Shown here piece by piece: positions 5,400 through 63,980 of a DNA stretch of 64,000 bases. The position numbers and the translations under genes were made by a program. The notes below the pieces were generated by a model. The model was given only the letters and a program-made list of their open reading frames with translations, had not been told where the DNA came from and made no database searches. Position 1 is the stretch's first letter, and each line of letters starts with the position of its first letter. This stretch comes from Patescibacteria group bacterium (GTDB lineage Bacteria > Patescibacteriota > Patescibacteriia > Magasanikbacterales > UBA922). The stretch covers positions 1,714-65,713 of the forward strand of contig JBAZZL010000002.1 in assembly GCA_041658785.1 (NCBI GenBank). Reading direction: 5' to 3'.

Positions 5400-5474
5400 T
5401 CTGCGACCGCCCGACAACTCATCCTCTGTCTGGCAGTTAATCCGAGCGATGGTGCTCCAACTTTCTCTGGCGGT

Positions 5475-5680
5475 AGTCCGACAACTCTATCCCTGTCCCT
5501 TTCCCTTATGAAGGGAAAGGGAACCCATTAAGCGGGTTCAATTAAAATTCAATCGTTAGGTCATTTTCCTTTAGAAGAGAAAGCGCGGTTAACGATTGAA
5601 TTAAGGATAAACTTTCTTAACGAGTCCTCCTTCCCTTCATAAGGGAAGGAGACAGAGGATGAGTTGTCGGATTACCGCCA
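5475..5680. repeat. ~205-bp foldback (MITE-like) element, copy 1, with nested inverted repeats; extra terminal-repeat copy at 5411-5432
   Basis: Near-identical to 34400-34604. Terminal inverted repeats CCGACAACTC..GGGA / TCCC..GAGTTGTCGG. Internal palindromes TTCCCTTATGAAGGGAA and ATTCAATCGTTA/TAACGATTGAAT. Confidence 0.6.
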
Positions 5681-6359: not shown

Positions 6360-7199
6360 ATGAGAGATTTAAAACAAAATCTGGCAGTTGGTGGATTCAT
6401 GTTATCGCTTCTGTCCTGCGGGACGGAGAGTCGGCAGGAGGTGCCACAGCCGCGTGACAACCGTGACGTGCCACAGCACTTCACTGTGAACCTGAATCTG
6501 CGCTTCCAACGGACGACGGAGGGAGTCCTCTACGGCCAAATGATCGGCCGACTGGAGTACGATGAGACACTCCAGCAACTAGCGCAGGAAACCATTGACT
6601 CAGGTCAGTTCGCGGACAACCCCCAGGAGGTGGAGCTCCTGGAGAAGATCACAACTGGCAGTACCGAAGTCGGTCTCGCCGACTTCACCATCGAACTAGG
6701 AAGCGAACACACTGTCACCGACCACGATGGTACCTTCCAGCTCGCTATCACCGGCGAAGATTCCTTCATCACTGTGAAGTACGACGAAGTGGATGGCACT
6801 ACCTCCACGCTGGCCACCTTTGACATTCCTCAAGAGCCTGGTATGATGGAGATGTTCGTCCCGCTCCAGTTCGACCATCAACACTCCCAGAGCCGCCCTC
6901 TCCACGATCACAGTATAGATCAAGGAGAGTATCAGCAAGTCGAACAGGGACTCAATTATACCAGGGATCTTTCCTGCCGGAAATGCAACGGCTGGTGGGA
7001 CCGGGACGGCGGTCGGGCAGGTAGCGACTGTTTCCGTGCACTCAGCCAAAGGTTCGCTCCTTGCTGGGCTGAAATGATGAAGATTCCATCGATCTTGGGG
7101 GGTCGATTCTGCAACGGCACCAGAAACTGCTCAATCCAGATCGGCCACGGTTGGAATGACACCCACACCCACGGCAGTTCGGTCTGGTACTGCCGCTGA
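6360..7199 (+). CDS. hypothetical lipoprotein with Cys-rich C-terminus in a GC-rich islet
   Basis: Lipobox LSLLSC-G. Acidic middle region. Multiple Cys in the last 80 aa. Local GC clearly higher than flanking DNA. Confidence 0.4.
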   Translation: MRDLKQNLAVGGFMLSLLSCGTESRQEVPQPRDNRDVPQHFTVNLNLRFQRTTEGVLYGQMIGRLEYDETLQQLAQETIDSGQFADNPQEVELLEKITTGSTEVGLADFTIELGSEHTVTDHDGTFQLAITGEDSFITVKYDEVDGTTSTLATFDIPQEPGMMEMFVPLQFDHQHSQSRPLHDHSIDQGEYQQVEQGLNYTRDLSCRKCNGWWDRDGGRAGSDCFRALSQRFAPCWAEMMKIPSILGGRFCNGTRNCSIQIGHGWNDTHTHGSSVWYCR

Positions 7200-8322: not shown

Positions 8323-10560
8323 TTACTCAAGATGCACCCTCCCCTCCCATTCCCTCACCCTCTCTCTCAACGCCGGATACTTCCCAAAATCAATACCCCG
8401 CGCCAATTCCCGCGCGAGTTTTATTAATTCATGGTCATGAAAGGTCGCGAGCCGCAGATTCATCATCCCGCTCTGGGCCGTGCCGTACACCTCGCCCGGA
8501 CCGCGCGTTTTCAGATCATACTCGGCAACTTTGAATCCGTCCGTTACTTTTTCAAAATATGCCAACCGCTCTCTCACCTTTTCGCTGTCGCTGTCTGTGA
8601 ACAAAAAACAATACGATTGATGCTCGCTTCTCCCAACCCGTCCGCGAAACTGATGCAGTTGCGCCAAACCAAACCTGTCCGCCCCCTCAATCATCATCAC
8701 GCTCGCGTTCGGAATGTCCACGCCGACCTCCACCACTGATGTGGAAACTAATACGTTGATTGTTCCATTGTTAAATTGTTCCATTGTCTTGTCTTTATCG
8801 CCGGTCTTCATCCTTCCGTGTAAAAAACCGACTTTTAAATCTGGAAAAATATTTTTAGATAACTTCTCGTACTCTCTCAATACACTCTTCTTTTCGTCAA
8901 AATGTGTAACTTGTAACTTGTCCCGCAGCGAGCGGGATCCCGTTGCGGCGGGATAACTTGTAACTTGTCCATCAATCTCCGGCTTCCGGCTTCCAGCTTC
9001 CGGCTTCCGGCTCAAAGTTCTTTCTTCAATCAGCGGGCAGATAACAAAAACCTGTCTTCCTGTCTCAACCTGCGAACGTATAAACCCGTACGCCTTCTCT
9101 CTACTCCGCGACTCTACCGCGCGCGTCTTTACCGGCTTCCGTCCCACGGGCAGTTCGCGGATAATGGACAAATCCAAATCCCCGTAAATCGTCAGCGCAA
9201 ACGACCGTGGTATCGGCGTCGCCGTCATGCTCAAGAAATGCGGCACGGTATTCTTCTGTCCGGATTTATCCGACGCAACTTCAGTGAAACCGGATTTTTC
9301 TCTAATCACTTTTCTCTGCTCCACCCCAAACCGATGCTGTTCGTCCACTACCACTAAACCTAAATTTTTAAACTCAACATCCTCGGTCAAAAGTGCGTGA
9401 GTGCCAACAATTATTTGCACCTCGCCCTCTCTAATTAACTTCAAAGTTTCTTCTCTCATCTTTCTTTTTGAACCATCTCCAATTTCCAATTTCCAATTTC
9501 CAATTTCCTCACTGGTCAACAATACCATCGGACGGTCAGAAAATAACTTTTTTAATGTCTCAAAGTGCTGTTTTGAAAGTATCTCCGTCGGCGCCATAAT
9601 CGCCGTCTGCAGCCCGTTCAGCGCCGCGTTATACGCCGCGATGCCGGCCACCACGGTCTTTCCCGAACCGACATCCCCTTCCAACAGACGATTCATCGGC
9701 TCCCCTTTTTCCAAATCCCGCAAAATCTCCCACGCCGCGATCTTCTGATCGCGGGTCAGCGTGAACGGCAGTGACTGGACAAATTCCCGCGTCTCCTTTT
9801 CTTTAAATTTAATCCGCGACGCCTGGTAACGCTTCATTGACTGGCGAATCATCTCGGCCCGCAACTGCAAAACAAACAACTCGCCAAATTTAAGCCGCCG
9901 CTCGGCCTGTTTCAACTCTTCCTTGGTTTCTGGAAAATGAATCGCTTTTAACGCGAACGGCAGAGTAATCAAATCAGCTTTCTCTAAAATTTCCTCCGGC
10001 AGCCATTCGTCAATTTTCTCCGCCTCGCCAATCACCTGACTCATCAAAAATCTCAACTGTTTCTGGGTTATTCCGGAAGTCAAAGAATACATCGGAACTA
10101 TTCTAGCTGTATGCGTTGTACTCACAACATCATCTTTGTTTCTTGTTTCTTGTTTCTTGTTTCTTTCGTACGATGGTCCTTTCATCGTCACCCCAAACAT
10201 ATCGCCGCTAACCTTGCCAGAAAGATAAACATTATCCCCCACTCTTAAAATCTTGGTAATAAACGGCTGACCAAACCAAATAACTCTAATTCTGCCAGTC
10301 TCGTCCGCCACCACCGCCTCGGTGATAATTTTGCGCTTGCGCGGACTGCGCTTGTTGGCGATAATCTCAATCTTGCCTTTTACTGTAGTCTGCATGCCGT
10401 CTTTTAGGTCTTTAATCAGGGTAACTTGACTATAATCTTCATAGCGAAACGGGAAATAAAAAAGCAGGTCTTGGACAATTTCCACGCCCAGGCGCCTTAG
10501 TTTTCTTTCCAACGTCTTGCCAACGCGATTTAACTCAGTAACTTTGGTTTTCAAATTCAT
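8323..10560 (-). CDS. recG: ATP-dependent DNA helicase RecG with three in-frame repeat insertions
   Basis: OB wedge domain. Helicase motifs GDVGSGKT, DEQHRFG. C-terminal TRG region. Inserts: (CCGGCTT)n and the GGGATCCCG element at 8920-9010; (TTCCAAT)n at 9478-9508 encoding GNWKLEIG; (CTTGTTT)n at 10136-10166. Confidence 0.9.
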   Translation of the reverse strand: MNLKTKVTELNRVGKTLERKLRRLGVEIVQDLLFYFPFRYEDYSQVTLIKDLKDGMQTTVKGKIEIIANKRSPRKRKIITEAVVADETGRIRVIWFGQPFITKILRVGDNVYLSGKVSGDMFGVTMKGPSYERNKKQETRNKDDVVSTTHTARIVPMYSLTSGITQKQLRFLMSQVIGEAEKIDEWLPEEILEKADLITLPFALKAIHFPETKEELKQAERRLKFGELFVLQLRAEMIRQSMKRYQASRIKFKEKETREFVQSLPFTLTRDQKIAAWEILRDLEKGEPMNRLLEGDVGSGKTVVAGIAAYNAALNGLQTAIMAPTEILSKQHFETLKKLFSDRPMVLLTSEEIGNWKLEIGDGSKRKMREETLKLIREGEVQIIVGTHALLTEDVEFKNLGLVVVDEQHRFGVEQRKVIREKSGFTEVASDKSGQKNTVPHFLSMTATPIPRSFALTIYGDLDLSIIRELPVGRKPVKTRAVESRSREKAYGFIRSQVETGRQVFVICPLIEERTLSRKPEAGSRKPEIDGQVTSYPAATGSRSLRDKLQVTHFDEKKSVLREYEKLSKNIFPDLKVGFLHGRMKTGDKDKTMEQFNNGTINVLVSTSVVEVGVDIPNASVMMIEGADRFGLAQLHQFRGRVGRSEHQSYCFLFTDSDSEKVRERLAYFEKVTDGFKVAEYDLKTRGPGEVYGTAQSGMMNLRLATFHDHELIKLARELARGIDFGKYPALRERVREWEGRVHLE

Positions 10561-14433: not shown

Positions 14434-14945
14434 GATACGAAATACGAAAGAATACGAAATTACGAAAATAAACTTTACGAAGAATATTATATTTTATGCC
14501 ACAAGGAGGTAAACAATATATATTGAGAAAAAACGACTTACTTTATCCGGAACTTAGTTTCCGTATTAACGGAGTATTATTTGAAGTGTATAGACAAATG
14601 GGTGGCGGACATCATGAAAAATATTATCAAAAAGCCGTTGTTCTTGGATTATTGAAAGAAAAAATTAAATTCAGAGAACAAGTCTATGTGCCGTTAAAGT
14701 TTAATGATAAAATTGTGGGAAAATATTTTTTAGACTTTTTAATTGAAGATAAAATTATTTTAGAGTTAAAAAGAGGCAAGATGATACCAATACTCAATTT
14801 AAAACAGACAAAACAATACTTATCCACATTAAATTTAAAATTAGGAATTGTTGCCAGCTTTACGCAAGAAGGGGTCGTGATAAAAAGAATAATAAATGAA
14901 TACTAACTGTCTTTCGTAATTTCGTATTCTTTCGTATTTCGTATC
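14434..14945. mobile_element. GxxExxY-gene cassette bounded by perfect 34-bp inverted repeats
   Basis: Left GATACGAAATACGAAAGAATACGAAATTACGAAA (14434-14467) is the exact reverse complement of 14911-14945. A third solo copy lies at 36732-36766. Confidence 0.45.
14496..14906 (+). CDS. GxxExxY family protein
   Basis: GVLFEVY (GxxExxY) motif. 136 aa. Family is commonly found as an inserted accessory gene. Confidence 0.6.
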   Translation: MPQGGKQYILRKNDLLYPELSFRINGVLFEVYRQMGGGHHEKYYQKAVVLGLLKEKIKFREQVYVPLKFNDKIVGKYFLDFLIEDKIILELKRGKMIPILNLKQTKQYLSTLNLKLGIVASFTQEGVVIKRIINEY

Positions 14946-16690: not shown

Positions 16691-16743
16691 CAAAACTGTC
16701 ATTCCGAGCCCTCGCGGGCGAGGAATCCCTTTTTTATTTTATT

Positions 16744-34340: not shown

Positions 34341-34399
34341 TCACCTCCCCAGCCCCGCCGCGTTGTTGCGGTCTGGTTGCTCCCCTCTTCGGTGGTAAT

Positions 34400-34604
34400 C
34401 CGACAACTCTATCCCTGTCCCTTTCCCTTATGAAGGGAAAGGGAACCCATTAAGCGGGTTCAACTAAAATTCAATCATTAGGTCATTTCCCTTTAGAAGA
34501 GAAAGCGCGGCCTAACGATTGAATTAAGAACAAACCCTCTTAACGAGTCCTCCTTCCCTTCATAAGGGAAGGAGACAGAGGATGAGTTGTCGGGCTACCG
34601 CCAG
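34400..34604. repeat. ~205-bp foldback (MITE-like) element, copy 2
   Basis: About 93% identical by eye to 5475-5680. Confidence 0.6.
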
Positions 34605-34702
34605 AGAAAGGCAGAGGATAGATTATTGGGCTACCGCGAAGAAAATTTAAACCGCATTCGTTCAGTTTTCAACCTATCAACACCCCATCCCCCTTATCCA
34701 CA

Positions 34703-36330: not shown

Positions 36331-36764
36331 ATTATTATATAAAAAGTATAGAATAAGTGTATATTTACTATACACTTTATCTATAATTTTGTCAAGAGAC
36401 CGCTGGTTCAATCCACGCCATACTTATCATCCGCTTTTTGAAGCGTGATCATCCTTTTACCGGAACGCAAAATCAAGCGCGCCATTTTCACTCGCTTCTT
36501 TAATTCTTTGCTTCGCGATGCGCATTGATCTTCCAAAATTTCTTCAAATTCTTTTTTTAAAAAATCGGCTTGCCTCTTATCCATAAAGCATTCGCGTTTA
36601 GTTCTTTATTTTTATGTGGATTAGCGAATTGAGCCCGGCCGGGCGAAATTCGCGCCGGAGCACCGCCAGCGCGAAATTCGTCTGCGGACTCATTTCGCTA
36701 CTCCATCGGATCTGCCGCGGATTTTTTATTTTTCGTAATTTCGTACTCTTTCGTATTTCGTATC

Positions 36765-38070: not shown

Positions 38071-38158
38071 GAAACTAGAAATTAAAAACTGGAAACTGGA
38101 AACTGGCTGTAAAACAATAATTTCCAGTTTCTAATTTCTAGTTTCTAGTTTCCTGATT
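38071..38158. repeat. palindromic array of heptamer repeats (GAAACTG/GAAATTA vs TTTCCAG/TTTCTAA)
   Basis: gaaactagaaattaaaaactggaaactggaaactgg ... tttccagtttctaatttctagtttctagtttcc. Confidence 0.6.
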
Positions 38159-38165: not shown

Positions 38166-38570
38166 TTAAACAGAAGACTTCCACAGCCCATGCAAATTGC
38201 AATACGCCCTCGCCTCAATTACCTTGGAGCGAGTATGAAAAACCGCTTCCGGCTTATCGCCCGGCTTCAAAAAGACCCTGCCGCGGCGATTATCTTCCAG
38301 CACAATTTCAATCCATTCAATATAATGTTTTTCCTCCATTGGATGTTCTTCCGAGCCCACTTTAACTTTCACGCCATCGCTCACTTTGCACTCATCGGCC
38401 GGCAAGATTTCAATCACCGGTACGTGCTTTTCTCGCGACGCGTCTACCGTATTTTCGGCTTGCAAGACCATGGGCTGGCCGCAACAAACCAGCTCCCCCG
38501 CTCCGGCGTGCACCATCTCCACGATGTTGCCGCAGATATTGCATTTGTAAACTTGATTTAATTGAGTCAT
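38166..38570 (-). CDS. dfx: desulfoferrodoxin (2Fe superoxide reductase)
   Basis: N-terminal desulforedoxin CxxC...CC. C-terminal SOR His/Cys ligand set. Confidence 0.8.
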
Positions 38571-38720
38571 AGGTAAAATTTTTTAGTGTTTTTTGAATAA
38601 TTCGTTAGATTATTAATCTGTATATCTGGATTAAGTTTATTACAAATAGAGTGTGCGGTCAAGTTATGGTATAGCGGCAACCACTGAACGGGGTTTAATT
38701 TCTTATTTCTTATTTCTTCC

Positions 38721-38830
38721 GCAATAAGCGGGATCCCGCCCCGCAATGGAGTCGAGTCCCCGTTCGCTGCGGGGCTCGCTGCCACCGCCACAGCGGGGCC
38801 CCGTCTTCTTTGCGGGGCGGGACAATTTCT
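38721..38830. repeat. GCGGGATCCCGC-centred hairpin-rich repeat element (full copy A) flanked by TTTCTTA heptamers
   Basis: About 70-nt core shared with 63907-63980. Partial copies at 8922-8956 and 50741-50768. Confidence 0.55.
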
Positions 38831-38873
38831 AATTTCTTCAATCATATTTCTATTTATTTCAACCTATTTCTTG

Positions 38874-40160
38874 TTACCCTCGACTCGTCTTAATTTCAAT
38901 CATTTTTTCCACCCGCCTGATATCAGCCAACAAATCCGAGCGCTTTTTATTGAATAACACTAGATCGCAAACCGCCTTGCCGCCATGCTTGGCAAATCGG
39001 CACCGATCCCCAATTTTGCGATAAATTTTTATATCTATAAAAGATTTCAAATCTTGCGCCTTCTTAATTCCTCGCAGACTAACCAATCTTCCTTCTTTCT
39101 TAGCATAAAACTTCAAAGCCGCGGCGTATCCTTTGACTTTTTTTGAAATTATGGGTTTCTGGGGAATTCTTATTAAAACATCATTCAGACAATGATCTAT
39201 GTTATAAGAGAGCCGATACATCTCGGCGCGAAAACCGCCGATGCGCGGACCTATTTCAATTATTTTCCATCCATCGTTCGTTTTGATTAGTTCAATATGC
39301 GCTGTGCTGCTGCGCAATCCCAAAGCATAAATCGCTTTTTTCGCTACCTCTTCGGCTTTGGCGACGCTTTCCTTGTTCAAAGTCGTGGGAGTAATTCTTT
39401 TGTAACAAAAAAAATCATCAATGCCGATTGATTGTCCGGTGGTGAAATGCACCAAAGGGCAAAAATACACCTTACCGCGAGAACTAACATAAGCATCCAC
39501 CGAATACGTCTCTCCTTCCATCATTTGCTCTACCAAAATTTTTGGAACAATCTCTCTTTTATTATCTTTATAAATTTTTTTAATCTGGCGAAATATTTTT
39601 TTTAAATTCGCCGCCAGTTCCTCTTCGTGATAGCAAACAGTTACAAGCAGGCTCGCCGCGAGCCCCGCCGGCTTCATGATCAAAGGAAAGCCGACTTTAT
39701 CTTTTATTTTCTTGATTGAATTCTTACCTTTGCCGCTCACAATCGTAAACTTGGGAGCGATCTTTTTGTCATAAGCCCGAAACATCCGGCGCATATAAAT
39801 TTTGTCGGTTGACCAGAGTATTGACTGAACTGTCGGAGTTTTCAAATACGGCACGTGCGGAATCACTTTGATGAAAGCCGCCATGTTGCTTTCACCGCGG
39901 CAAGTAATCGCTAAAAATTCTCTTTGATAATGAACAAGCATCTTTTTAATCTCCAACGGTTTATCAAGATCGCCGGAAAATAAAATATCCACCCCGCGAT
40001 CGTCGGCTTTTTTTTTCCAGTCTTTTTTTTTGGCATCGCGAATCACTCCGATTCGAATTCTTTGCTTGGTTTTCCGAGCGTATTGTTTGATACTTTCAAT
40101 CGAACCTGCCGAGGCGCTATTGATAAATAATATTATATTCTTATTATTCATAATAAACAA
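38874..40160 (-). CDS. ATP-grasp domain protein (carboxylate-amine ligase-like)
   Basis: ATP-grasp B/C-domain motifs (KP..G..S.GV, E.IEI). Confidence 0.55.
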   Translation of the reverse strand: MFIMNNKNIILFINSASAGSIESIKQYARKTKQRIRIGVIRDAKKKDWKKKADDRGVDILFSGDLDKPLEIKKMLVHYQREFLAITCRGESNMAAFIKVIPHVPYLKTPTVQSILWSTDKIYMRRMFRAYDKKIAPKFTIVSGKGKNSIKKIKDKVGFPLIMKPAGLAASLLVTVCYHEEELAANLKKIFRQIKKIYKDNKREIVPKILVEQMMEGETYSVDAYVSSRGKVYFCPLVHFTTGQSIGIDDFFCYKRITPTTLNKESVAKAEEVAKKAIYALGLRSSTAHIELIKTNDGWKIIEIGPRIGGFRAEMYRLSYNIDHCLNDVLIRIPQKPIISKKVKGYAAALKFYAKKEGRLVSLRGIKKAQDLKSFIDIKIYRKIGDRCRFAKHGGKAVCDLVLFNKKRSDLLADIRRVEKMIEIKTSRG

Positions 40161-41574: not shown

Positions 41575-41760
41575 CTTCTGCCAAAAATTTCTCGTCAAAT
41601 ATGGAAATCTCCGGTTTGGCTTTGTCCTTCATGGCAAAAATATAGATCACTCCTTCGGCGGAAATGCTCTGAGAAACTAATTTGCGAATGGCCGACTCAA
41701 TTTCCGGTCCAATCTCGCCGCCAGCAGTAACTATCCTTAACCTTCTAACATCTTTTGATT
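41575..41760 (-). pseudogene. possible relic of type I restriction enzyme HsdR C-terminal region
   Basis: Minus-frame translation ...IGPEIESAIRKLVSQSISAEGVIYIFAMKDKAKPEISIFDEKFLAEVMKC* resembles the HsdR C-terminal ..DDEFLAEV.. segment. Only about 60 codons survive, with no start. Confidence 0.3.
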
Positions 41761-42678
41761 ATACTTCGCCAATTCCAAACGAACTTTCCGCTCCATTTCT
41801 TTATGCGAAACATCGCCGGCACTACCCAAAATCTCTTTATCATTCAAAATCAAAAAGCCGTCAAGTTTTTTTATCCAGTCCTTCATATACATTACTCTTT
41901 GTTCCACGCTCTGCAATTCAGCGAAAGAAAGAAACTGTTCCACCAATAAATTTAATCGCTTTAACTCCAACTCCTCTAAATAATTTTTGGCGATTTCGGC
42001 CTGCTCGCGGGTGATAATTTCACCCTTCCAATTTGTTAAACCCAGATTATCTTTTCGGCTATCAACCCTGCTGTGGACAATTTCCGCCGCAGTTAAACCG
42101 GTAATCGCGTAATGAAATTTATTCTGCACAATAGCAAAGAATTGCTTGGCGTAATCCAATTTTGGATTATAATCCGCACTCAAAGCAAACACATCTTTCA
42201 CTTTTTGATAAAAATTGGCTTCGGAGGTTCTAATTTTGCGAATGCGCTCTTCCAATTCTTGAAAGTACGGCTTGGCCACTCGCCCGCTCTCCAAACGCTC
42301 ATCATCCATGACAAAACCCTTAATTATATACTCTTTCAACTTTTGGGTGGCCCAAATACGAAATTGCGTGCCACGCAAAGAATTGATCCGATATCCAACA
42401 GAAATTATCGCGTCCAAATTGTAGTGTTTAACAAGGTAATTTTTACCGTCGGCGGCAGTTACCGAGTATTCCTCGGCAACTGAATTTTCGCTAAGTTCGG
42501 CTTCTTTAAATACATTCTTCAAATGCAAACTGATATTATCGGCGCTACAATCAAAAAGCTCGGCCATTTGCTTTTGCGAAAGCCAAACGGTTTCATTTTC
42601 CATCTTTACTTCAATCTTTGTCTGCCCGTCTTCGGTGTTGTAGATGATGATTTGGTTGTTTTTATTTGGGGCGTGCAT
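41737..42678 (-). CDS. rhuM: RhuM-family protein (virulence/RM-associated DNA-binding protein)
   Basis: Characteristic N-terminus IIYNTEDGQTKIEVKMENETVWLSQKQMAELF. 313 aa. Confidence 0.7.
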   Translation of the reverse strand: MHAPNKNNQIIIYNTEDGQTKIEVKMENETVWLSQKQMAELFDCSADNISLHLKNVFKEAELSENSVAEEYSVTAADGKNYLVKHYNLDAIISVGYRINSLRGTQFRIWATQKLKEYIIKGFVMDDERLESGRVAKPYFQELEERIRKIRTSEANFYQKVKDVFALSADYNPKLDYAKQFFAIVQNKFHYAITGLTAAEIVHSRVDSRKDNLGLTNWKGEIITREQAEIAKNYLEELELKRLNLLVEQFLSFAELQSVEQRVMYMKDWIKKLDGFLILNDKEILGSAGDVSHKEMERKVRLELAKYNQKMLEG

Positions 42679-42743
42679 AAATCACTTCTTACTTTCAACG
42701 TCGACGGAATTTGTGCCAGCGTTAGCTAGTGCGCCGCTTAAAA

Positions 42744-43910
42744 TTATTTTGCCGTCCAATTTCCAGCTTCGTCAAAATTTTGTGATCGTTTGAAACCGCA
42801 AGCATTCCAAATTAGGTCAAACATCGGACGCAAAATATCTTTTGGCTCTGTATTGTATGATTCGATAATTGTTTCCGGCAATTGTAAAATATCTCGATCA
42901 ATTTTGTAATGATCATGATGCCAAAATATTTCGTCAACGCCCATTTCCCAATCTTTAACCCAAATCAGTGTCAAAAAAATAACAATCGGCATATTAACGC
43001 CAAGCTGTTTTGCTAAATTCAAATATTCCGCCAACGATTTTATCAACTCCAACTCATAGGTAAAACTTGGAATAATTTTTTTCTCTCTATCTGCTCTTAA
43101 TATTAAACCTTCAACAGCCTCAATAATTCCATTTCGGTATAACTGAATGTATGAATGGGATTTATCGTTTTTTCCACCAGAATAAGACAAAACGCCTTCA
43201 AGATTAATCCGATGGCTCAAGCCGGAAGCGTATATCGGCTGTAATTTTGCAGGTACATTTATTATCGGGTTCAAATCAATGCTATGATTCGGACTAAAGG
43301 ATCCTAATGGTATGAGATGTAAAACGATTTTACCGCCCTCGTAAAATGGAAGCGGTAAATTATCAGCAACAAGTTGGGCAATTCTTTCTACTTTGAATTT
43401 ATTTATTTGCTCGGTTAGTGTTTGAGAAAGATTAAAAGCATTTTTTAATTCGTTCGTATCCAGCGCGTATTTTCCGGCGGAATTTCTTGAATAAAATTTG
43501 TCATGTCCTTTGTAAATAACGCGGTGCGGTCCCGCCCAGCTTCTATTTATTCGGAATATAAAAACATTCTTTTTGTCGGAAACATTGACGGTTCGTGTCG
43601 CAAAAATAATTCTCGGCTCAATTCCGTCTCGAATAATGTTTTCATATTTTCTGATTTCCTCATCAACATTTTCTATTTCCACGCCATCAATACTTTTCGG
43701 ACTTCCGTTTTCTTCCGAAATGCCGAAAATCAAATCCCCGCCGGAAGCATTAGCAAAAGATGAAATATCAGCCAAAAATTCTTTTCTGTCTGCGTCGGAA
43801 TTACTCGGTAATAATTTTTTATATTCAATTGTTTTGCCTTCTAAAACAGCGTTGCTTCGCAACTGCTCTAAATCATTAAATTCAATTTTATCAAGATGTT
43901 TATTTATCAT
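42744..43910 (-). CDS. AlbA_2/Schlafen-like putative DNA-binding domain protein
   Basis: E..IEYKK....L...ISSFANASGGDLIFGI matches the AlbA_2 signature. Sits between rhuM and hsdS. Confidence 0.55.
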   Translation of the reverse strand: MINKHLDKIEFNDLEQLRSNAVLEGKTIEYKKLLPSNSDADRKEFLADISSFANASGGDLIFGISEENGSPKSIDGVEIENVDEEIRKYENIIRDGIEPRIIFATRTVNVSDKKNVFIFRINRSWAGPHRVIYKGHDKFYSRNSAGKYALDTNELKNAFNLSQTLTEQINKFKVERIAQLVADNLPLPFYEGGKIVLHLIPLGSFSPNHSIDLNPIINVPAKLQPIYASGLSHRINLEGVLSYSGGKNDKSHSYIQLYRNGIIEAVEGLILRADREKKIIPSFTYELELIKSLAEYLNLAKQLGVNMPIVIFLTLIWVKDWEMGVDEIFWHHDHYKIDRDILQLPETIIESYNTEPKDILRPMFDLIWNACGFKRSQNFDEAGNWTAK

Positions 43911-43914
43911 AAAA

Positions 43915-45276
43915 TTACCCTAAAATCATTTGTTCTATTTCTTTTTGCGCTCCGGCGACAGTGCTTTCCGCTTCTTGCCGCAAGCGTTTTACTTTTTTAT
44001 AAATTGTATTTACGCCAGCGATAATTTTTTCTTGTTTTTCAACGCTGGGCAATGGCACGACTAATTTTTTCAATGCGTCATAATCCAACGCTGGGCGCGT
44101 GCCACCCGTTGTGGAGCGGAAAGATAATTCACGACCAATTTTTGTATTGAAAAAAGACGCTACATATTCGGGCAATATCTTTGTTTTCCCCACTTCGTTT
44201 TGCAAGTGAAAACGGACAGAGTGCTGATTGATATTTCCCTCAAAATTATCTGGCACAACTGCAACGCTTCCAATTCTTCCCGTGATAGTAAAAATTAAAT
44301 CGTCTTTTTTCAACTGCGAACGCTTAAGCATTGTTTCGTGAATTTCTGGTTTGATAAATTTTACATCGTCAAGTTTTATTCCCATTTCCGTAATATTCTG
44401 TACTCGCAAGAATGGCACGCCGCCCTCGTCCGAATAATAATCACCCGTAACTTTTGGCGTTGCTCCACCGGACATATCGGCTATGGCTTGGCCAAGCGCA
44501 AAGTGTTTTTTATTTTTAATCTGCTCCAATAAACTACGCAGGTATGGTTTGTAAAATAAAGCGTCAATACGACCCTCAATTTCATCGCTCCAAATCTGAA
44601 ATACCCGCTCTGCCCCCCCCCGCGGCATATCTATACCAAGCTCGCCCAAAACAAAATCGTCAATTGAGGACAAAATTTTCAAAATTTCCGCTTGTTTCTT
44701 TTTCTTTTGTTCGTATGCTTCTTGAATTTTCTTGACGACTTCGTTTTGAACCGAAAGAGGCGGAATGGGAATATCAAAATTCTTTATTGTTTCAATTGTT
44801 ATATTTCCTTGAATTGCGCCGATTTTTTCGCGCTCAATCAATTTTCGGCTCGCTTCACTGTTTAGCCACGCGGAAATATATTGTTTGTTGATTTTGGTAT
44901 TAAGACAAAACTTAATCATAAAAGAGCCGAAGGCAAATCCTTCCGCCTCTTTCGGAACGACAACGACAATACCAACCGAGCCGCTTCTTGAAATAAGTAG
45001 GTCGCCCTCGTGAACAATCGCTTTTCCTACTTCTTTGCGTTGTTCTTCGGACAAATAAACAACATCGCCCACATCAATCCCGTCATTTTTCAAATTGAGA
45101 ATACGCAAAAACGGTATTCCAAAATCAACATAATCGTTTGCCGTAGAAAGTCCGTAGCGAATATCGGTAATAAAATCGCCGAGTTTTTGCGATTTATATT
45201 TCCCGTTTTGAATCGCTTTTTGAAGCTCGCGGATTGCCGGTAACCAATATTTCGCGTCAAGCCGTCCGCCGCTCAA
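43915..45276 (-). CDS. hsdS: type I (or IIB-like) restriction-modification specificity subunit HsdS, two target-recognition domains
   Basis: LLISRSGSVG and TITGRIGSVAVV TRD cores. Central and C-terminal conserved helices. TTG start. Confidence 0.8.
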   Translation of the reverse strand: MSGGRLDAKYWLPAIRELQKAIQNGKYKSQKLGDFITDIRYGLSTANDYVDFGIPFLRILNLKNDGIDVGDVVYLSEEQRKEVGKAIVHEGDLLISRSGSVGIVVVVPKEAEGFAFGSFMIKFCLNTKINKQYISAWLNSEASRKLIEREKIGAIQGNITIETIKNFDIPIPPLSVQNEVVKKIQEAYEQKKKKQAEILKILSSIDDFVLGELGIDMPRGGAERVFQIWSDEIEGRIDALFYKPYLRSLLEQIKNKKHFALGQAIADMSGGATPKVTGDYYSDEGGVPFLRVQNITEMGIKLDDVKFIKPEIHETMLKRSQLKKDDLIFTITGRIGSVAVVPDNFEGNINQHSVRFHLQNEVGKTKILPEYVASFFNTKIGRELSFRSTTGGTRPALDYDALKKLVVPLPSVEKQEKIIAGVNTIYKKVKRLRQEAESTVAGAQKEIEQMILG

Positions 45277-46426
45277 AACATCGCCGCTCCAAGTTGTAAA
45301 AATTTCGAGCGAAGCCGAGCTCTTTTTGCTTTCTCACTTCATCAAGAGCGTGCAAAAGAAATCCGCCCGAACCGCAAGCGGGGTCAAGCACAAGATCGTC
45401 ATTTTTTATATTCATCATCTTGACGGCGAAGCTCACAATTTCGCGCGGAGTAAAGTATTGTCCGCTTTTGCCCTTGAAAAAATCCTCCATAAACTGCTCA
45501 AAAGCAACGCCTTTTGTATCAAGATCGGTTTTATTGAGCGACACGCTTTGCAAGTGTTCAACGACGGTATAAAGCTCCTCTGGCTCGATTTTCAAACTTT
45601 CCTTAAACACTTCGGGGTCTTTTTCTTTCGCTTCAAGATAAATTTCGTTTATGCGCCGATAAACGCTTTCGGCTTTTTCGTGCGTCTTGATTTGAAAATC
45701 GTAATACTCGCCGGTTTTTCGTCCGCGCTTTTCGTCGCGAATTTTTACGAAAATGATTTTGCAAAGTTCGTCAAAAGCAACGGTTGGATTTCTTTTGCCA
45801 CCAGCCCAAAGCGTATTATGGGATTTTTCAAGGGCGCGTTTTAATTCTGATTTATCAAGCACTTTCAAATCCCAGTCCGGATCGCCTTTTTTGTAACGAA
45901 ACTCCTCAATCTTTCCGTAAGAAATAGGAATATCGGTAATGGTCGCTTTTTCCGGTTCTTTGTCGTTCCATTCGGCGGTTTCCATTGCTCGGCGAGTATT
46001 GCCCGCAACGCAAATCGCAAGCGGGGCGTGAAGCACGCGAGCGTTAGCGATTGCCTGTTTGGTGGCTTGCTCAAATTCCGCGTCGGAAATGCCGTCTTTT
46101 TTACACTCAACGACGATATAAGGTCTCTTTTTTGCGTCATCCTCATAAATAACTATGTCCGCGTAGCGTTCCGGCGTCCGGTCCGGCATCTCTATTTCAA
46201 GCTCAATCCGTTTTGCCGGATAGTGATATTTTTCAATCAGGTCAAAATAATATTCGGCGCGGACTTTTTCTTCGGGATCAGTAAAATTATATTTTTTACC
46301 AGAAGCCGAATATTTAATTTTACTGCCATCAAACACAAAGTACCCTCTGTTTTCACCAATTTCTAAATAATCATTAAAACTACTCGTGCCCCCATCTTGT
46401 TGTGGTTTATAGATTGTGTCAGTCAT
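45257..46426 (-). pseudogene. truncated RM subunit: N-terminal PD-(D/E)xK nuclease-like domain fused to an N6-adenine MTase that stops just after motif I
   Basis: D..IVIY...IVVECKK nuclease-like motif. MTase motif X QYFTPREIV and motif I LDPACGSGGFL are present. The ORF ends about 30 aa later, with no NPPF/NPPY motif IV, and overlaps hsdS. Confidence 0.55.
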
Positions 46427-46481
46427 ATTTTATTTATAATCCCAATTTTCCCCGTCAGCTTGCTGCGGGGTCGTCGTTTCA

Positions 46482-46733
46482 TTAATACACCTCCTGCCGA
46501 TGCCCAATTTTAACCACGATCACCAACAGCTCGTGTTTATAAATTTTATAAATAATTCGGTACGGCCAAACCCGCACGGAATATTCTCCGGCGTGCTCGC
46601 CTGTCAGCTTTTTACCCTGAAACGGATCTTGCCCCAATAATTTCAGCGCCAAAGCGACGCGGATTCGGTATCGGGAATCAATTCTGGCGAGATCTTTTTG
46701 CGCTTTTTTTGGGAGAACCACGGCGTACGCCAT
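46482..46733 (-). CDS. relE: RelE/StbE-family type II toxin (start at MAYAVV)
   Basis: YRIIYKIY..ELLVIVVKIGHRQEVY C-terminal signature. Confidence 0.7.
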   Translation of the reverse strand: MAYAVVLPKKAQKDLARIDSRYRIRVALALKLLGQDPFQGKKLTGEHAGEYSVRVWPYRIIYKIYKHELLVIVVKIGHRQEVY

Positions 46734-47037
46734 ACTTCTTTTTACCTTTATCGGCGATGAGAAAACCCTCTTTGGCCAGGTATTCGTCCAAAGTGATGTA
46801 ATCGCCTTTTTTATAATCCCTCTCCGCTTCTTCAATATCCTTTTTCAAATCCGGAAAGTCCTTCATCACCTCCAGCGTTTCTACCCACGATTCAAATTCT
46901 TCGGCCGACATCATTACCGCTTTGGGGCGGCCTTTTTCCGTCAGGGTATAATAAACCCCCGGCTTTTGCACTTCTTTGGCCAGGTCAAAAATTCTTTTTC
47001 TCGCTTCGGATATCGGTAAAGTATTTCTGGTATTCAT
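46678..47037 (-). CDS. Phd/YefM-family antitoxin; C-terminal ~20 codons overlap the toxin start
   Basis: Phd/YefM core VYYTLTEKGRPKAVMMSAEEFESWVETLEV. T8 homopolymer at 46703-46711 lies inside the 56-nt overlap. Confidence 0.6.
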   Translation of the reverse strand: MNTRNTLPISEARKRIFDLAKEVQKPGVYYTLTEKGRPKAVMMSAEEFESWVETLEVMKDFPDLKKDIEEAERDYKKGDYITLDEYLAKEGFLIADKGKKKYGVRRGSPKKSAKRSRQN

Positions 47038-47102
47038 AAAAGTTTTTAAGTATTTATATGTACATAATAATGTACGCTACAAATTTTGTCAAGCCGATAT
47101 TA

Positions 47103-47765
47103 TCAACAATGCCCCAGCTTTTTTAAACTGGCGTAAGAACCATTTGACACAATCACATGATCCACAAGCTCAATCCCCAAAATTTTCCCCGCTTCGATCA
47201 AACGTTTGGTAATCTTAATATCTTCTTCCGACGGTTCCGTCTCTCCGGAAGGATGATTGTGCGCCACAATCACTTGCGCGGCCAAATGCCGGACTGCCGG
47301 CTCAAATACTTCGCGCGGATGAACGAGATTGGCATTAAGCGAACCGACCGAAACGATTTCACGCTTGATTTCTTGATTTCTGGAATCCAAAAAGAAAATT
47401 ACGAAATGCTCTTTTTTATGATCACGGATATCCTTGAGTTCGTCCCAAACATCCTTTGGCGATAGAATCAAAACTGATTGTTTGTTTTGCAAATGACGGC
47501 GACCAAGTTCGTAGCAGGCGACGATTTCGCACGCTTTCGCGCTACCAAGACCGAATGTATTTTTTAATTCTTTAACCGAGGCCTTGGCCAAACCAACGCC
47601 ACTGAATTTCCTTAAAATCTTACTGGATAATTCCACGACATTTATGCCTTCGCTTCCGGTGCGTAAAAGAATCGCCAAAAGTTCGGAATCCGAAAGCCGC
47701 TCGGGACCGTATTTTTCCAGCTTCTCCCGCGGCCGATCAATTTTGGGTAAGTCCTTTATTTTCAT
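47103..47765 (-). CDS. radC: RadC-family JAB/MPN domain protein
   Basis: HNHPSG..PS..D JAMM motif. N-terminal HhH region. Confidence 0.85.
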   Translation of the reverse strand: MKIKDLPKIDRPREKLEKYGPERLSDSELLAILLRTGSEGINVVELSSKILRKFSGVGLAKASVKELKNTFGLGSAKACEIVACYELGRRHLQNKQSVLILSPKDVWDELKDIRDHKKEHFVIFFLDSRNQEIKREIVSVGSLNANLVHPREVFEPAVRHLAAQVIVAHNHPSGETEPSEEDIKITKRLIEAGKILGIELVDHVIVSNGSYASLKKLGHC

Positions 47766-47800
47766 ACTTATTTATTTGGCGATTTCCTTTAACATCTATT

Positions 47801-48496
47801 TTATTTTTCACTTTCTGCTCTGGCTTTGAACAAAAAAATGGTTTCTGATTTTAATTTCGCACGCGCCCAATCTTTCTGTGGTTCGGATAATGACTCCCCT
47901 AAACCGACCAATAAATTGCGATCCGCCATTTTTTCAATCTGATCAACGCATTTTTGCAACGCTTCTTTGAAAGAAACACCGGATCGCCTTTTAACTATTT
48001 CCTTGTTAATCGGCCAATTATTTTTCAAAAAGTACCAGACATCATAAATATCGCGGCTAGTCTTTCCGATACGCTCTAACATCGCCATTAACTTATGGGC
48101 AAACATATCCTCGGGAATCATAACCAACATAGAAATACCCAATAGGGTCTTTACTTCAAACTTTGATCCGAAATCCCGTCTGTTAACTTCTATTTTGATG
48201 TTTTGTGATTTAGTGTCATACGAGATGACAATTAGCAAATTGAATTTTTTGATTTTTGAATCTATGACCTTGCCATAGCTCTCCGCAATTTTTTGGATTT
48301 TCTCAAAGACCATTTGCTCTTTGCTTTCATCCAATAAATCAAAATCCAAATCAAACGAATCTCTATTCAATCCATAGAACAAGTGAGCGGCCGTTCCGCC
48401 TTTGAATCCTAAATATGGAGAGATGGAAGTATTGGAATAAATATCCTTTAGGATTTGCAATAATATGTTTTTATGCTTGGAGTAATCAACGGTCAT
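47801..48496 (-). CDS. AbiEii/AbiGii-family nucleotidyltransferase toxin
   Basis: GGTAAHLFYGLNR.S.DLD nucleotidyltransferase motif of the AbiEii (DUF1814-like) family. Confidence 0.65.
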   Translation of the reverse strand: MTVDYSKHKNILLQILKDIYSNTSISPYLGFKGGTAAHLFYGLNRDSFDLDFDLLDESKEQMVFEKIQKIAESYGKVIDSKIKKFNLLIVISYDTKSQNIKIEVNRRDFGSKFEVKTLLGISMLVMIPEDMFAHKLMAMLERIGKTSRDIYDVWYFLKNNWPINKEIVKRRSGVSFKEALQKCVDQIEKMADRNLLVGLGESLSEPQKDWARAKLKSETIFLFKARAESEK

Positions 48497-49092
48497 ACGT
48501 TTGAATTTTTATAGTTTTTAAAATAATCATTAACCCTCTTTTCCATTTTTTTGTTATTGTAGATCGGCAAAATTTGAAACACCTTGTCCCAATTCAAGCC
48601 GTTTAAATTATCAAAATGATAGTCTTTGCTTATATATATCCTGTCCAAAAACGCTCTCTCTTTTGTAGCAACGGCTATGCCATTTTGATGTTCGATGCCA
48701 ATAGTGTTACTCAATACGTAATCCTTCATGCGGATTAAGGAAATTTTTTGTTCGGGAATTTCAATCTCTCGGGTCACATACGATGCGACAAAAATAGAAT
48801 CGTAGTACTGAAAATTAATTCCGGCACGGGTCAATACCGTTTCAAAGCTGATGTATGAGGGAGTATAAATGCGCGTCACCAATTCAAAACGATCATAATT
48901 TTTATCTTTGGCATATATGCCGCGCCGGACCCTGATTAATTTTCCAGCGTTAACATATTTAATTAATCGGCTGGCTACGGTCTGCTCTTTTTCTTCTCCC
49001 CACAACAAAGCCACGTCTTTTGTCGAAAAGACGGCCCGAGGAGATCGCAATAAGACCTCTAAATATTCACCTTTGGTGGGTTTTTTATCCAT
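48493..49092 (-). CDS. AbiEi-family antitoxin/transcriptional regulator (type IV TA)
   Basis: N-terminal wHTH. 4-bp overlap with the AbiEii gene. Size and order typical of AbiEi-AbiEii. Confidence 0.55.
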   Translation of the reverse strand: MDKKPTKGEYLEVLLRSPRAVFSTKDVALLWGEEKEQTVASRLIKYVNAGKLIRVRRGIYAKDKNYDRFELVTRIYTPSYISFETVLTRAGINFQYYDSIFVASYVTREIEIPEQKISLIRMKDYVLSNTIGIEHQNGIAVATKERAFLDRIYISKDYHFDNLNGLNWDKVFQILPIYNNKKMEKRVNDYFKNYKNSNV

Positions 49093-49609: not shown

Positions 49610-50404
49610 TCATGAATTAAGCCTCTTGTCAAATTTCTGCCAGTCAAAAATTTTTCTCTCACTGTGAAAAACCGTGTACTCTTGCACTAAATTATGCAAT
49701 GAATCCGCCTCATCCCCCTTAAATTTCAAATTATTAATTAACTGCCAATCCCCCTCCAAAAGCAATCGTAAATTCTTCGCCTGCTCCGCGTTACAATTCA
49801 AAATCCGTTCCCCCAATTTTTCTTTTTTCTCCCGGCAAACTTTACAAATAACCCCTCCCCCAGCCGGATACAAATCCGCTATTTCTTCAATCCCGCACAC
49901 CACACAGATCTTTAGCTCCGGCGCAAAACCTAAATAATTTAGTAATTTAATGATAAAACCATCCACCAGTACAGGCGCATTGCAATGCGCCTCAACTAAC
50001 GCATTGCAATGCGTCTCAACTAACGCATTGCAATGCGTCTCAACTGAAGCAATAAATTCCAACCAACTTTTCAACAAATCAAAAATCCTCTCCTCCCTTT
50101 CTCCTGTATGCGTTAATTTATCAACCACAGAAACCAGATAACTGGCAGCTAAACTTTTCTCAGCATTTTTTCTAACGCTTGAAAAAAACTCTACCGGCTG
50201 TACTTTGGTCAGATGATCTATTTCCTTGCCTTTTTCCACCACGATATCAACCAAAGAAAACGGCTCAAGATGAGCCGAATTTTTGCTGGTTATTTTTTTC
50301 ACTCCGCGCGCGAGCAGTTCAAGCTTGCCTTGATCTTTCGTGAAAAGGGAAATGATCTGGTCTGACTCGCGGAAATCTCGCCGGGATAATATAATTGAAA
50401 GCAT
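49610..50404 (-). CDS. recO: DNA repair protein RecO with 24-nt x3 in-frame tandem repeat
   Basis: N-terminal OB fold. CxxC...CxxC zinc motif. Repeat VETHCNAL x3 at 49970-50045. Confidence 0.8.
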   Translation of the reverse strand: MLSIILSRRDFRESDQIISLFTKDQGKLELLARGVKKITSKNSAHLEPFSLVDIVVEKGKEIDHLTKVQPVEFFSSVRKNAEKSLAASYLVSVVDKLTHTGEREERIFDLLKSWLEFIASVETHCNALVETHCNALVEAHCNAPVLVDGFIIKLLNYLGFAPELKICVVCGIEEIADLYPAGGGVICKVCREKKEKLGERILNCNAEQAKNLRLLLEGDWQLINNLKFKGDEADSLHNLVQEYTVFHSERKIFDWQKFDKRLNS

Positions 50405-50459: not shown

Positions 50460-50879
50460 TTATTGCTTACTCTGCTTACTCTGCTCCAAATATGATTGCA
50501 GAATCACCATCGCCGCTTTCTCATCTCTACTCACCGTTCCTCCCATCGCATCCGCCTGCCTCGAAGTAAACCTCTCGTCAACGAATTCAATTGGTAAGTC
50601 AATTCGTTTTTTTAATTCTTTCACGAACGCTTGAACAATTTTTGTGTTCTCATTCTCTTTTCCATCCAAACCAATCGGCAACCCCACGACAATTTTATCT
50701 ATCTTTTCTTTGGCAATCAAATCTGAAATCTGTCCCGCCAAAACGGGATCCCGCTCGCTGCGGGAAATTCTGAAATCTGAAATCAAAAATTGGCCAAATG
50801 GCAAAACAACCCCAAGGCCAGTCTCCACCCAAGCCAATCCAATATTTTTTCTGCCGTAATCAATGCCGAGTATATTCAT
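50460..50879 (-). CDS. ruvX: YqgF/RuvX-family Holliday-junction resolvase-like nuclease, with in-frame GGGATCCCG element
   Basis: MNILGIDYGRKNIGLA N-terminus. Insert at 50741-50768 encodes RSERDPV. Confidence 0.85.
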   Translation of the reverse strand: MNILGIDYGRKNIGLAWVETGLGVVLPFGQFLISDFRISRSERDPVLAGQISDLIAKEKIDKIVVGLPIGLDGKENENTKIVQAFVKELKKRIDLPIEFVDERFTSRQADAMGGTVSRDEKAAMVILQSYLEQSKQSKQ

Positions 50880-56999: not shown

Positions 57000-57015
57000 A
57001 ATATTTTACACTTAA

Positions 57016-57212
57016 TCACTTTAACACTTTAGCACTTTAACACTTTAGCACTTGAGCACTTTAACACTTTAGCACTTGAGCACTTTAACACTTTAGCACT
57101 TGAGCACTTTAACACTTTAGCACTTTAGCACTTGAGCACTTTAACGCTGAGGCACTTTTCCAATTTACTTGGGAATAAATCGTGCTAAAGTGCTTCAGTG
57201 CTAAAGTGCTTA
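57016..57212. repeat. 24-nt tandem array (CACTTTAA-CACTTTAG-CACTTGAG, ~5.5 units) with inverted tail, between rpsZ and rpsH
   Basis: Direct units 57016-57150. Inverted copies 57182-57212 can pair back onto the array. Confidence 0.7.
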
Positions 57213-58488: not shown

Positions 58489-58538
58489 ACCAATTTCCAA
58501 TTTCCAATTTCTAATTTCTAATTTCTAATTTCCAATTA
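58489..58538. repeat. heptamer tandem array (TTCCAAT/TTCTAAT)n in rplN-rplX spacer
   Basis: ccaatttccaatttccaatttctaatttctaatttctaatttccaatt. Confidence 0.65.
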
Positions 58539-61244: not shown

Positions 61245-61245
61245 A

Positions 61246-61366
61246 TTTCCAATTTCCAATTTCCAGTTTCTAATTTCCAATTTCCAATTTCCAGTTTCTA
61301 ATTTCCAGTTTCTAATTTCCAGTTTCTAATTTCCAGTTTCTAATTTCCAATTTCAATTTAATTAAC
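61246..61366. repeat. heptamer tandem array (~17 units of TTCCAAT/TTCCAGT/TTCTAAT) in rpsS-rplV spacer
   Basis: Longest array of the family in the window. Confidence 0.7.
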
Positions 61367-63212: not shown

Positions 63213-63839
63213 TTATGATAATCTTTTTTCTAAAATATCAACGCCTTTTTTCGTTGCGATAACATATTGATGGCGCAAAAGATCCGCCACGTTCACATCT
63301 TGCGCTCTGCTTGCATCAATTTTATCTGCGTTATTAATCGCTCGCAAGATTATTTCATTTTTTTCTTCAGTCAGCAATAATGTGGTCTTGCCGGCGCCAG
63401 GAAGCTTTCTCCGAAGCGCGACTGCGTTTTTTGTCTTCCCATCAGCCGGCAGATTTTCCAACACGACAAATTGATTCTCTTTGGCCTTATCAGACAGACA
63501 CATTCTAACTGCTAACCTATTCATTTTTTTATTAATTTTTTTCTTAAAATTTCGGTTTGCATTTGGCCCAAAAGTCACGCCTCCGCCAACCCACAATGGC
63601 GAACGGATTGAGCCGTGCCTTGCTCGTCCTGTTCCTTTTTGCTTCCAAGGTTTACGGCCGCCTCCTCTTACTTCACTTCGATCTTTCACATGCGCCCATG
63701 GCTGGCGCAAATTTGACATAAGAGCGATATACACCTGATGCACGACAGACTCTTTTGGTTTGATGCCAAAAACATCATCTTTCAACTCCAGATTGCCGCT
63801 TTTCTCTCCATTTACATTGTATACATCAACTTTGACCAT
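63213..63839 (-). CDS. rplD: 50S ribosomal protein L4
   Basis: 208 aa. L4 core. Confidence 0.85.
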   Translation of the reverse strand: MVKVDVYNVNGEKSGNLELKDDVFGIKPKESVVHQVYIALMSNLRQPWAHVKDRSEVRGGGRKPWKQKGTGRARHGSIRSPLWVGGGVTFGPNANRNFKKKINKKMNRLAVRMCLSDKAKENQFVVLENLPADGKTKNAVALRRKLPGAGKTTLLLTEEKNEIILRAINNADKIDASRAQDVNVADLLRHQYVIATKKGVDILEKRLS

Positions 63840-63906
63840 ATCTATGACAAAACCAGTAATTAGCTGTTAAAATTATCATTCCGATCTTACACAGTTTCAA
63901 ATTTCT

Positions 63907-63980
63907 CCCGCAGTAAGCGGGATCCCGCCCCGCAATGGAGTCGTGTCCCCATTCGCTACGGGGCTCGCTGCAGGGACAAT
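63907..63980. repeat. GCGGGATCCCGC-centred repeat element (copy B) upstream of rplD
   Basis: cccgcagtaagcgggatcccgccccgcaatggagtcgtgtccccattcgctacggggctcgctgcag. Core shared with 38721-38830. Confidence 0.55.

Follow-up and report, generated by a model that had tools for sequence, protein, structure and literature searches.

What is the GC-rich repeat that lies between a desulfoferrodoxin gene and an ATP-grasp gene in this Patescibacteria contig, a small structured RNA or a mobile hairpin? A sequence-only reading had outlined the feature at 38721-38830 of the window (the whole 64,000-nt stretch of DNA that was analysed) and had proposed both. Both core-motif counts exclude chance as its origin: the 12-mer GCGGGATCCCGC (<=1 mismatch) occurs four times in the window (8932, 38728, 50743 and 63917) against 0.13 expected, always within the element, and the 21-mer CCCGCAGCGAGCGGGATCCCG (<=3 mismatches) occurs three times against 0.00 expected. 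The recurrent core claimed earlier is thus genuine, with four copies where fewer than 0.2 would arise by chance. The copies, with their host or neighbouring genes, are:

38717-38822, plus strand: long copy A, 106 nt, a degenerate hairpin 1 followed by a hairpin 2 that encloses two nested modules
38166-38570, minus strand: desulfoferrodoxin gene dfx (NCBIfam)
38874-40160, minus strand: gene for an ATP-grasp protein (NCBIfam)
63906-63976, plus strand: long copy B, 71 nt, located in a run of ribosomal-protein genes, in the intergenic stretch upstream of rplD
63213-63839, minus strand: rplD (NCBIfam)
8921-8953, plus strand: 33-nt doublet inside recG, antisense to the gene and read as PAATGSRSLRD
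8323-10560, minus strand: recG, host gene (NCBIfam RecG, E = 3e-241)
50733-50765, minus strand: 33-nt doublet inside ruvX, in forward orientation on the minus strand, sense, read as SRSERDPVLAG
50460-50879, minus strand: ruvX (yqgF), host gene (NCBIfam TIGR00250)

The two intergenic copies are related as described earlier (91% identity over 77 nt, family D11), with their boundaries refined to those above. The short copies do lie in frame in recG and ruvX, but the statement that both encode RSERDPV fails, as only the ruvX copy is read in sense. Heptamer arrays (ATTTCTT, TGTAACT, GAAATCT) contain or adjoin all four copies, in agreement with the heptamer flanks first reported.

At its simplest the repeat is a 33-nt inverted doublet, that is, a 17-nt GC-rich hairpin in an inverted pair of 33-34 nt, in which the two hairpins abut (TCCCGC-AGCGA-GCGGGA followed by TCCCGC-TGTG-GCGGGA) and the termini are fixed as TCCCGC...GCGGGA. 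The copy inside recG gives the short element at exactly 33 nt (TCCCGCAGCGAGCGGGATCCCGTTGCGGCGGGA), which as single-stranded DNA folds into two abutting 6-bp hairpins (TCCCGC-AGCGA-GCGGGA and TCCCGY-NNNN-GCGGGA) at -12.3 kcal/mol. Where the hairpins meet, their junction generates the GGGATCCC/BamHI palindrome; this is the 12-bp palindrome that had been noticed, which is real and is a part of the doublet. Forms in other genomes show how longer versions are built. A perfect 34-nt palindrome variant, TCCCGCAGTGAGCGGGATCCCGCTCACTGCGGGA, is present in L033 and L067, and the metagenome contig L067 holds at 6483-6552 an intact 70-nt long form, a doublet with perfect 13-nt terminal inverted repeats (TCCCGCAGTGAGC / GCTCACTGCGGGA) and with a 36-nt two-hairpin module (CCCCG-N9-CGGGG / CCCCG-N7-CGGGG) set between the stem and the loop of hairpin 2. 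Both the long form and the palindrome stand at non-orthologous loci. Nested in one another, such 36-nt modules produce mosaics of 70-106 nt, including both long copies of the window, whose parts are:

38698-38718, plus strand: (ATTTCTT)x3, a heptamer array lying 5' to copy A (TRF and sequence) and resuming at 38823 as AATTTCT AATTTCT
38717-38733, plus strand: hairpin 1 of copy A, 17 nt, TTCCGC-AATAA-GCGGGA, degenerate against the canonical TCCCGC-AGCGA-GCGGGA
TCCCGCCCCGCAA...TTGCGGGGCGGGA, plus strand: 13-bp stem of hairpin 2 of copy A, enclosing the two nested modules
38740-38775, plus strand: nested 36-nt module of copy A, CCCCG-N9-CGAGT / CCCCG-TTCGCTG-CGGGG, found also in copy B and in L067:6483-6552
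38783-38818, plus strand: second nested 36-nt doublet of copy A, CACCGC-CACA-GCGGGG / CCCCG-TCTTCTTTG-CGGGG, absent from copy B
63906-63976, plus strand: parts of copy B, namely hairpin 1 (63906-63922), TCCCGC, the nested 36-nt module (63929-63964) and TCGCTGCAGGGA

The covariance model R1 matches copy A at 38717-38774 and at 38783-38817; the doublet at 38783-38818 (24.4 bits, E = 7e-4) represents a sub-family shared with an element at L063:9939-9973. The CCCCGCA/TGCGGGG stems reported for the long copies are present in copy A, but copy B has no TGCGGGG. Both are degenerate relative to the intact 70-nt L067 copy, and copy B has several stem-breaking substitutions against it. The long copies are old, decaying nested composites. 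The feature at 38721-38830 is, then, a decayed nested composite of doublet elements rather than an RNA gene, and its mosaic of nested modules is comparable in style to BIME and NIME mosaics. A 92-aa ORF runs across copy A on the minus strand (38567-38845); it is almost certainly no real gene, existing because the GC-rich element is without stop codons.

A function at the RNA level was weighed against this. The element could be a cis-acting RNA or DNA structure under host selection: a small RNA gene, or a hairpin between operon genes that serves mRNA stability or processing, a role that REP elements can have. Its sequence is conserved across species, and each long copy separates genes that run in the same direction (ATP-grasp to dfx; upstream of rplD), so that both are probably transcribed. 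Copy A also has a strong DNA fold (-39.5 kcal/mol, z = -5.9). The fold of copy B, with its broken stems, is no stronger than that of shuffled sequence (z = -1.75). At the gathering threshold Rfam returned three tRNAs only, and at E<=10 the matches were chance ones far below threshold, none relevant to the element. Among 14 distinct doublets aligned, 8 of 12 base pairs are invariant and one shows a double change, a result equalled by 74 of 500 shuffles; what the stems show is sequence conservation instead of covariation, and no compensatory signal. The covariance model of the element did recover additional copies. A terminator scan found no terminator-like signature at either long copy, and copies show no strand preference, lying in both orientations, in coding as well as intergenic DNA and at non-orthologous loci across genomes. 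The small structured RNA proposed earlier is not supported by these results, and we regard any such host-selected structure as very unlikely.

The short copies show how a doublet arrives. The recG copy splits a heptamer array of (GTAACTT)n into 8905-8921 and 8954-8968, the ruvX copy splits one of CAGATTT type into 50718-50732 and 50766-50784, and both reading frames stay open across the inserts. Each site has an empty counterpart. The closest RuvX ortholog (P0002 in L063, 77% identity) has an uninterrupted (CAGACTT)x3-CAGATTG where the window reads CAGATTT-CAGAATT-(33 nt)-CAGATTT-CAGATTT, longer by exactly 33 nt and with no duplication, whilst the recG ortholog P0164 (L069) reads GTTACAA-GTTATAA-GTTACAA-GTTACAA, and in the window exactly 33 nt stand between GTTA and CAA of these same four heptamers. 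In both empty/filled pairs the array keeps its phase and its number of heptamers, and no target is duplicated; the comparisons span species at 61-77% protein identity, and present-day activity lies outside their reach. A 7-bp target duplication, suggested by the identical flanking heptamers, was ruled out because both empty sites differ by exactly +33 nt. The insert is absent from 49 of 50 RecG orthologs and from 24 of 25 aligned RuvX orthologs, the remaining one (P0078 in L065) carrying a related but different GC doublet in the same loop. Polymorphism also runs in reverse, L063 having a doublet in an ATACGAA array in the map-ruvX spacer, where the window has none. The insert-bearing ruvX allele is identical in five independent assemblies and the insert is therefore no assembly artefact. 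A C-to-T change (TCCCGT) is private to the two short window copies, which points to spread, or homogenisation, within the window genome. What the allele comparisons show is precise insertion, without target-site duplication, into AT-rich DNA and especially into heptamer tandem arrays.

Such insertions frequently lie in coding sequence. Ten of about 22 distinct copies lie in frame inside long ORFs, and the host genes assigned by NCBIfam include DnaG (L020), LigA (L042), IleS (L046), DnaX (L024) and Tmk (L036) besides RecG and RuvX. The coding inserts fall between HMM-aligned blocks or domains, in loops and linkers. A confident AlphaFold (AF2) model of the window RuvX (pLDDT 87.7) has the insert at the beta3/alpha1 junction. 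The consensus 33-mer is stop-free in all six frames, a state reached by 42% of shuffles of the same composition versus 1.8% for 43%-GC sequence. Because 33 nt is a multiple of three and the unit is stop-free, copies in surface loops and linkers are translated through and tolerated. All coding copies are 33 or 36 nt, whilst the forms confined to intergenic DNA measure 34, 52, 70, 71 and 106 nt; these contain TGA or have lengths that are not in every case divisible by three. This split is what selection on translated inserts would give and argues against removal of the inserts at the RNA level. The coding copies use five different frames of six, with a bias (p = 0.002) towards SRSERDPxxAG, found in 6 of the 10.

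RecG has acquired more than the doublet. In an alignment of Magasanikbacteria RecG proteins three or four hypervariable loops are filled by heptamer-encoded peptides (FSIFNFQFS, IGNWKLEIG, LQITNYKF) and by other GC-hairpin peptides; given this variety in the same loops, the process is general in the lineage. In the window gene the corresponding features are:

8978-9012, 9478-9508 and 10136-10165, within recG: further in-frame heptamer arrays (TRF), with RecG orthologs carrying different peptides in the same loops

In-frame repeats of other kinds were also seen in the window. In radA/sms the inverted arrays (GAAACTG)x4.4 and (CCAGTTT)x4.1 at 4349-4429 add about 27 codons, and in recO (49610-50404) a 24-nt tandem repeat at 49976-50045 (x2.9, 97% match) is translated as ETHCNALV-ETHCNALV-EAHCNAPV.

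Beyond the window, a scan of one genome per species with the pattern CCGCARYRAGCGGGATCCCG returned 57 loci. About 25 hits, in low-GC MAGs (32-51% GC), carry the full doublet, and nearly all of these MAGs are labelled Candidatus Magasanikbacteria/Magasanikiibacteriota or Patescibacteria, a few having other labels. Matches of the 20-mer pattern in high-GC genomes have no second hairpin and were set aside as chance. The identical consensus 33-mer, TCCCGCAGCGAGCGGGATCCCGCTGTGGCGGGA, is found in five species-level MAGs (CAILTG01, MFQN01, CAZHEJ01, JBAYJP01 and SICD01) and variants of it in at least five further MAGs, giving near-identical 33-mers in at least ten other Patescibacteria MAGs, and the repeat is thus conserved beyond the window genome. 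RuvX and RecG orthologs of the group are about 55-65% identical to the window proteins, so that conservation of the element far exceeds that of its hosts. This conservation extends to loop 1, where it is to be read with the scan in mind, as the pattern fixes the first hairpin and conservation figures there reflect the pattern, leaving variation unsampled. Viral contigs gave 0 element matches, and blastn against PLSDB plasmids gave chance matches in high-GC bacteria only.

Such extreme conservation, loop 1 included, could alternatively reflect a host function. The element might be recognised by a host or parasite protein and held identical across species by that interaction, for example as a DNA-uptake signal, a restriction-modification (GGATCC) site, or a site for nucleoid proteins or gyrase. 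A 33-mer identical in five species down to loop 1 would suit this, and dprA is present in the window, these bacteria encoding DprA and competence functions; uptake sequences of other bacteria also lie within genes and also occur as inverted pairs. Known uptake sequences, however, have a density of about 1 per kb, and the element, at a modest four copies per 64 kb, comes to about 1 per 16 kb, far below this. It arrives as a 33-nt insertion and not by point mutation, GCGGGATCCCGC is confined to it, and its long copies are visibly decaying. A recognition sequence is on this evidence hardly credible.

The target is better defined by context than by sequence. Of 21 distinct copies, 11 have a flank with period-7 self-similarity >=0.55; at positions drawn at random from the same loci the share is 3.8% (p ~5e-11). 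Because the flanking heptamers vary by locus, they are target and no part of the element. About half of the copies lie outside heptamer arrays, for example the LigA copy in L042. Junctions share a loose TTN|NAA pattern only, and no conserved target tetranucleotide of the IS200/IS605 type is visible at them. The apex of inverted arrays was weighed as an insertion point for doublets and dismissed, since the arrays beside them are direct repeats rather than inverted ones.

We consider it likely that these repeats form a family of miniature palindromic insertion elements that are non-coding and belong to Patescibacteria (CPR) of the Magasanikbacteria type. The 33-nt double-hairpin element is apparently selfish and mobile in the small genomes of these uncultured groundwater bacteria, and of the two first proposals it is the REP-like mobile hairpin that is supported: the copies are dispersed, orientation-independent, nested or in mosaics, and at non-orthologous sites, two of which have empty counterparts. 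New copies would be made by a trans-acting enzyme recognising the hairpin foot on single-stranded DNA, most plausibly an HUH/Y1 enzyme (RAYT or IS200/IS605-type) or another duplication-free transposase, and RNA-level effects such as mRNA hairpins would be a by-product. HUH/Y1 enzymes (RAYT for REP/REPIN; IS200/IS605 TnpA) are the best-known duplication-free agents (PMC3116915).

A Pfam scan of the approximately 44 window ORFs found no transposase of Y1/RAYT, DDE, serine or IS110 type, which fits the main rival mechanism, that of no dedicated transposase. Here host replication and repair would spread the copies: slippage-prone heptamer arrays would stall replication, and a segment with hairpins would be brought in from another locus through short-patch gene conversion or template switching. 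The genomes of CPR bacteria are small and as a rule IS-poor, the copies are strongly tied to slippage-prone period-7 arrays, and nested and mosaic products are present. Against this, every copy has the same precise ends (TCCCGC...GCGGGA), and the sites have neither the flanking microhomology nor the variable boundaries of template-switch products; the many copies outside arrays point the same way. These invariant boundaries argue against host repair at slippage-prone arrays, which we judge unlikely as the source of copies.

Taken as mobile hairpins, the repeats are a variant of the known miniature palindromic dispersed repeats and no new kind of element. Their closest analogues are the cyanobacterial SDRs, REP/REPIN and the Rickettsia palindromic elements, the defining features of each being shared only in part. 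SDR1-8 of Elhai et al. 2008 (Genome Res 18:1484) are reportedly very small dispersed repeats inside heptamer arrays whose phase is kept, and are said to nest in one another and in hairpin contexts, with a length of 21-27 nt. SDRs are not known to have a transposase. The element resembles them in being tiny, non-coding, dispersed and nested, in hosts rich in heptamer arrays, and in inserting into such arrays with the phase kept. It differs in being 33-36 nt long and in being a self-contained inverted hairpin doublet with frequent in-frame coding copies. PMC5861425 places SDRs in Nostocaceae only, whereas the hosts here are Patescibacteria/Magasanikbacteria MAGs. We saw no interrupted heptamer arrays in 50 kb of the Nostoc punctiforme plasmid pNPUN01.

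REP sequences are 20-40-nt GC-rich imperfect palindromes mobilised by RAYT (HUH/Y1), and REPINs are inverted doublets of them, folding into a larger hairpin (PMC3116915, PMC3733652). The element is likewise a short palindromic hairpin in an inverted doublet, dispersed without target duplication. REP/REPIN are, however, extragenic, and the element's coding copies depart from this; its hairpins also abut without a spacer, and its target is AT-rich heptamer arrays. One end of a REP bears an unpaired, conserved tag, GTAG or CGTC (PMC3733652); the element consensus has neither, and its flanks are variable. Genomes with REP/REPIN hold a RAYT gene flanked by the repeats; among the window ORFs no RAYT (Y1_Tnp) gene was found. 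The Rickettsia palindromic elements (RPE; Ogata et al. 2000), as PMC10969869 describes them, are palindromic selfish repeats of about 100-150 bp in frame in housekeeping genes. To that extent they match the element, which also lies in frame in unrelated housekeeping genes of a reduced genome and is translated as an extra peptide in tolerant parts of proteins. By the same account RPE encode a conserved peptide in a single frame, whereas the element is 33 nt and uses at least five of six frames; the sequences are unrelated, and the element's hosts are free-living or epibiotic CPR bacteria.

MITEs (Nezha, Correia/NEMIS, ERIC) are matched by the 70-nt form in its 13-nt terminal inverted repeats and lack of coding capacity, but the target-site duplication of MITEs is absent at the two empty/filled pairs, the basic unit is far below MITE size, and no parent IS with ends matching the element was found. 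Neisseria dRS3 (ATTCCC-N8-GGGAAT) consists of one 20-bp unit, which borders longer repeats and is an integration target for phage or IS110-type elements. Its stem is nearly that of the element's TCCCGC-loop-GCGGGA, and both dRS3/NIME and the element build intergenic mosaics; with only a 6-bp GC stem in common, the resemblance may be coincidental. The sequence at L067:132-147 (ATTCCCGCGGAGGCGGGAAT) fits the dRS3 consensus.

The window is itself rich in arrays, with 111 TRF rows of 7- and 8-nt tandem arrays, mostly in intergenic spacers and including those between ribosomal-protein genes (for example 57005-57158, 61245-61359, 58490-58537 and 38071-38153). They are often inverted pairs (I5-I25) able to form long AT-rich hairpins. 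Heptamer arrays are known in Cyanobacteria, Bacteroidetes and Beggiatoaceae, and the window arrays resemble the cyanobacterial STRR and TAACTGA-type arrays, the latter through its TAACTTG/TAACTGG arrays (PMC4679880). For CPR bacteria, we found no literature reports of heptamer arrays, palindromic repeats or such inserts.

Arrays also bound gene cassettes. A PD-(D/E)XK_3 ('GxxExxY') gene at 14496-14906 lies inside a cassette (14434-14945) with perfect 34-nt inverted repeats of ATACGAA-like units, and a solo third arm (36730-36764) adjoins asnS. In another Patescibacteria genome a gene of the PD-(D/E)XK_3 type with inverted ACGCAGAC-type arms lies in frame inside RecG (P0167, 903 aa), and the loci outside the window are L036:146-635 and L070:2806-3375, the arm sequence varying between loci. 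On Nostoc punctiforme pNPUN01 (L071) a 'four helix bundle protein' gene (1617-1982) stands within inverted heptamer arrays (TCAGGAG / CTGACTC) at 1559-2001, an architecture like that of the CPR PD-(D/E)XK_3 cassette in a different phylum.

CPR/Patescibacteria genomes are held to be streamlined, yet an apparently selfish 33-nt element lies in frame in essential RecG, RuvX, DnaG, LigA, IleS, DnaX and Tmk. As a source of protein length variation it will be misread by alignments and annotation pipelines, and in time series of groundwater metagenomes the 33-mer can serve as a marker of the lineage and of insertion polymorphism. The combination of heptamer arrays and nano-sized inserts parallels the Nostoc SDR phenomenon in a second, distant lineage, and very small genomes make the question of heptamer-array or SDR-type mobility approachable by comparative genomics. 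A bolder proposal, which we hold doubtful, is that heptamer arrays, GC-rich double-hairpin inserts and nuclease-type cassettes with inverted arrays are one hairpin/ssDNA mobility system common to Cyanobacteria and CPR. If so, the surface loops of core replication and repair proteins in CPR would be continually remodelled, and CPR genomes of about 1 Mb would make the enzyme identifiable through phylogenetic profiling.

Further repeats were noticed alongside the doublets. Two long-palindrome, MITE-like copies of about 215 nt (5470-5680 and 34392-34605) are about 94% identical, with arms GGTAGTCCGACAACTCTATCCCTGTCCCTTTCCCTT...; in Rfam they match no family and score weakly, as hairpins like miRNA precursors. 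A second palindromic family has five copies in L067:1415-5457 (GGGATTCCTCGG...TCCCGATGCGAATCGGGA...CGCTCGGAATGAC), and a related CATTCCGAGC...GAGGAATCCC hairpin follows dprA at 16700-16729 of the window. Between DUF4349 and recO (41737-49092) the window also holds a defence/addiction island with RhuM, SLFN/AlbA_2, type I R-M HsdS/HsdM, ParE/Phd, RadC and AbiEii.
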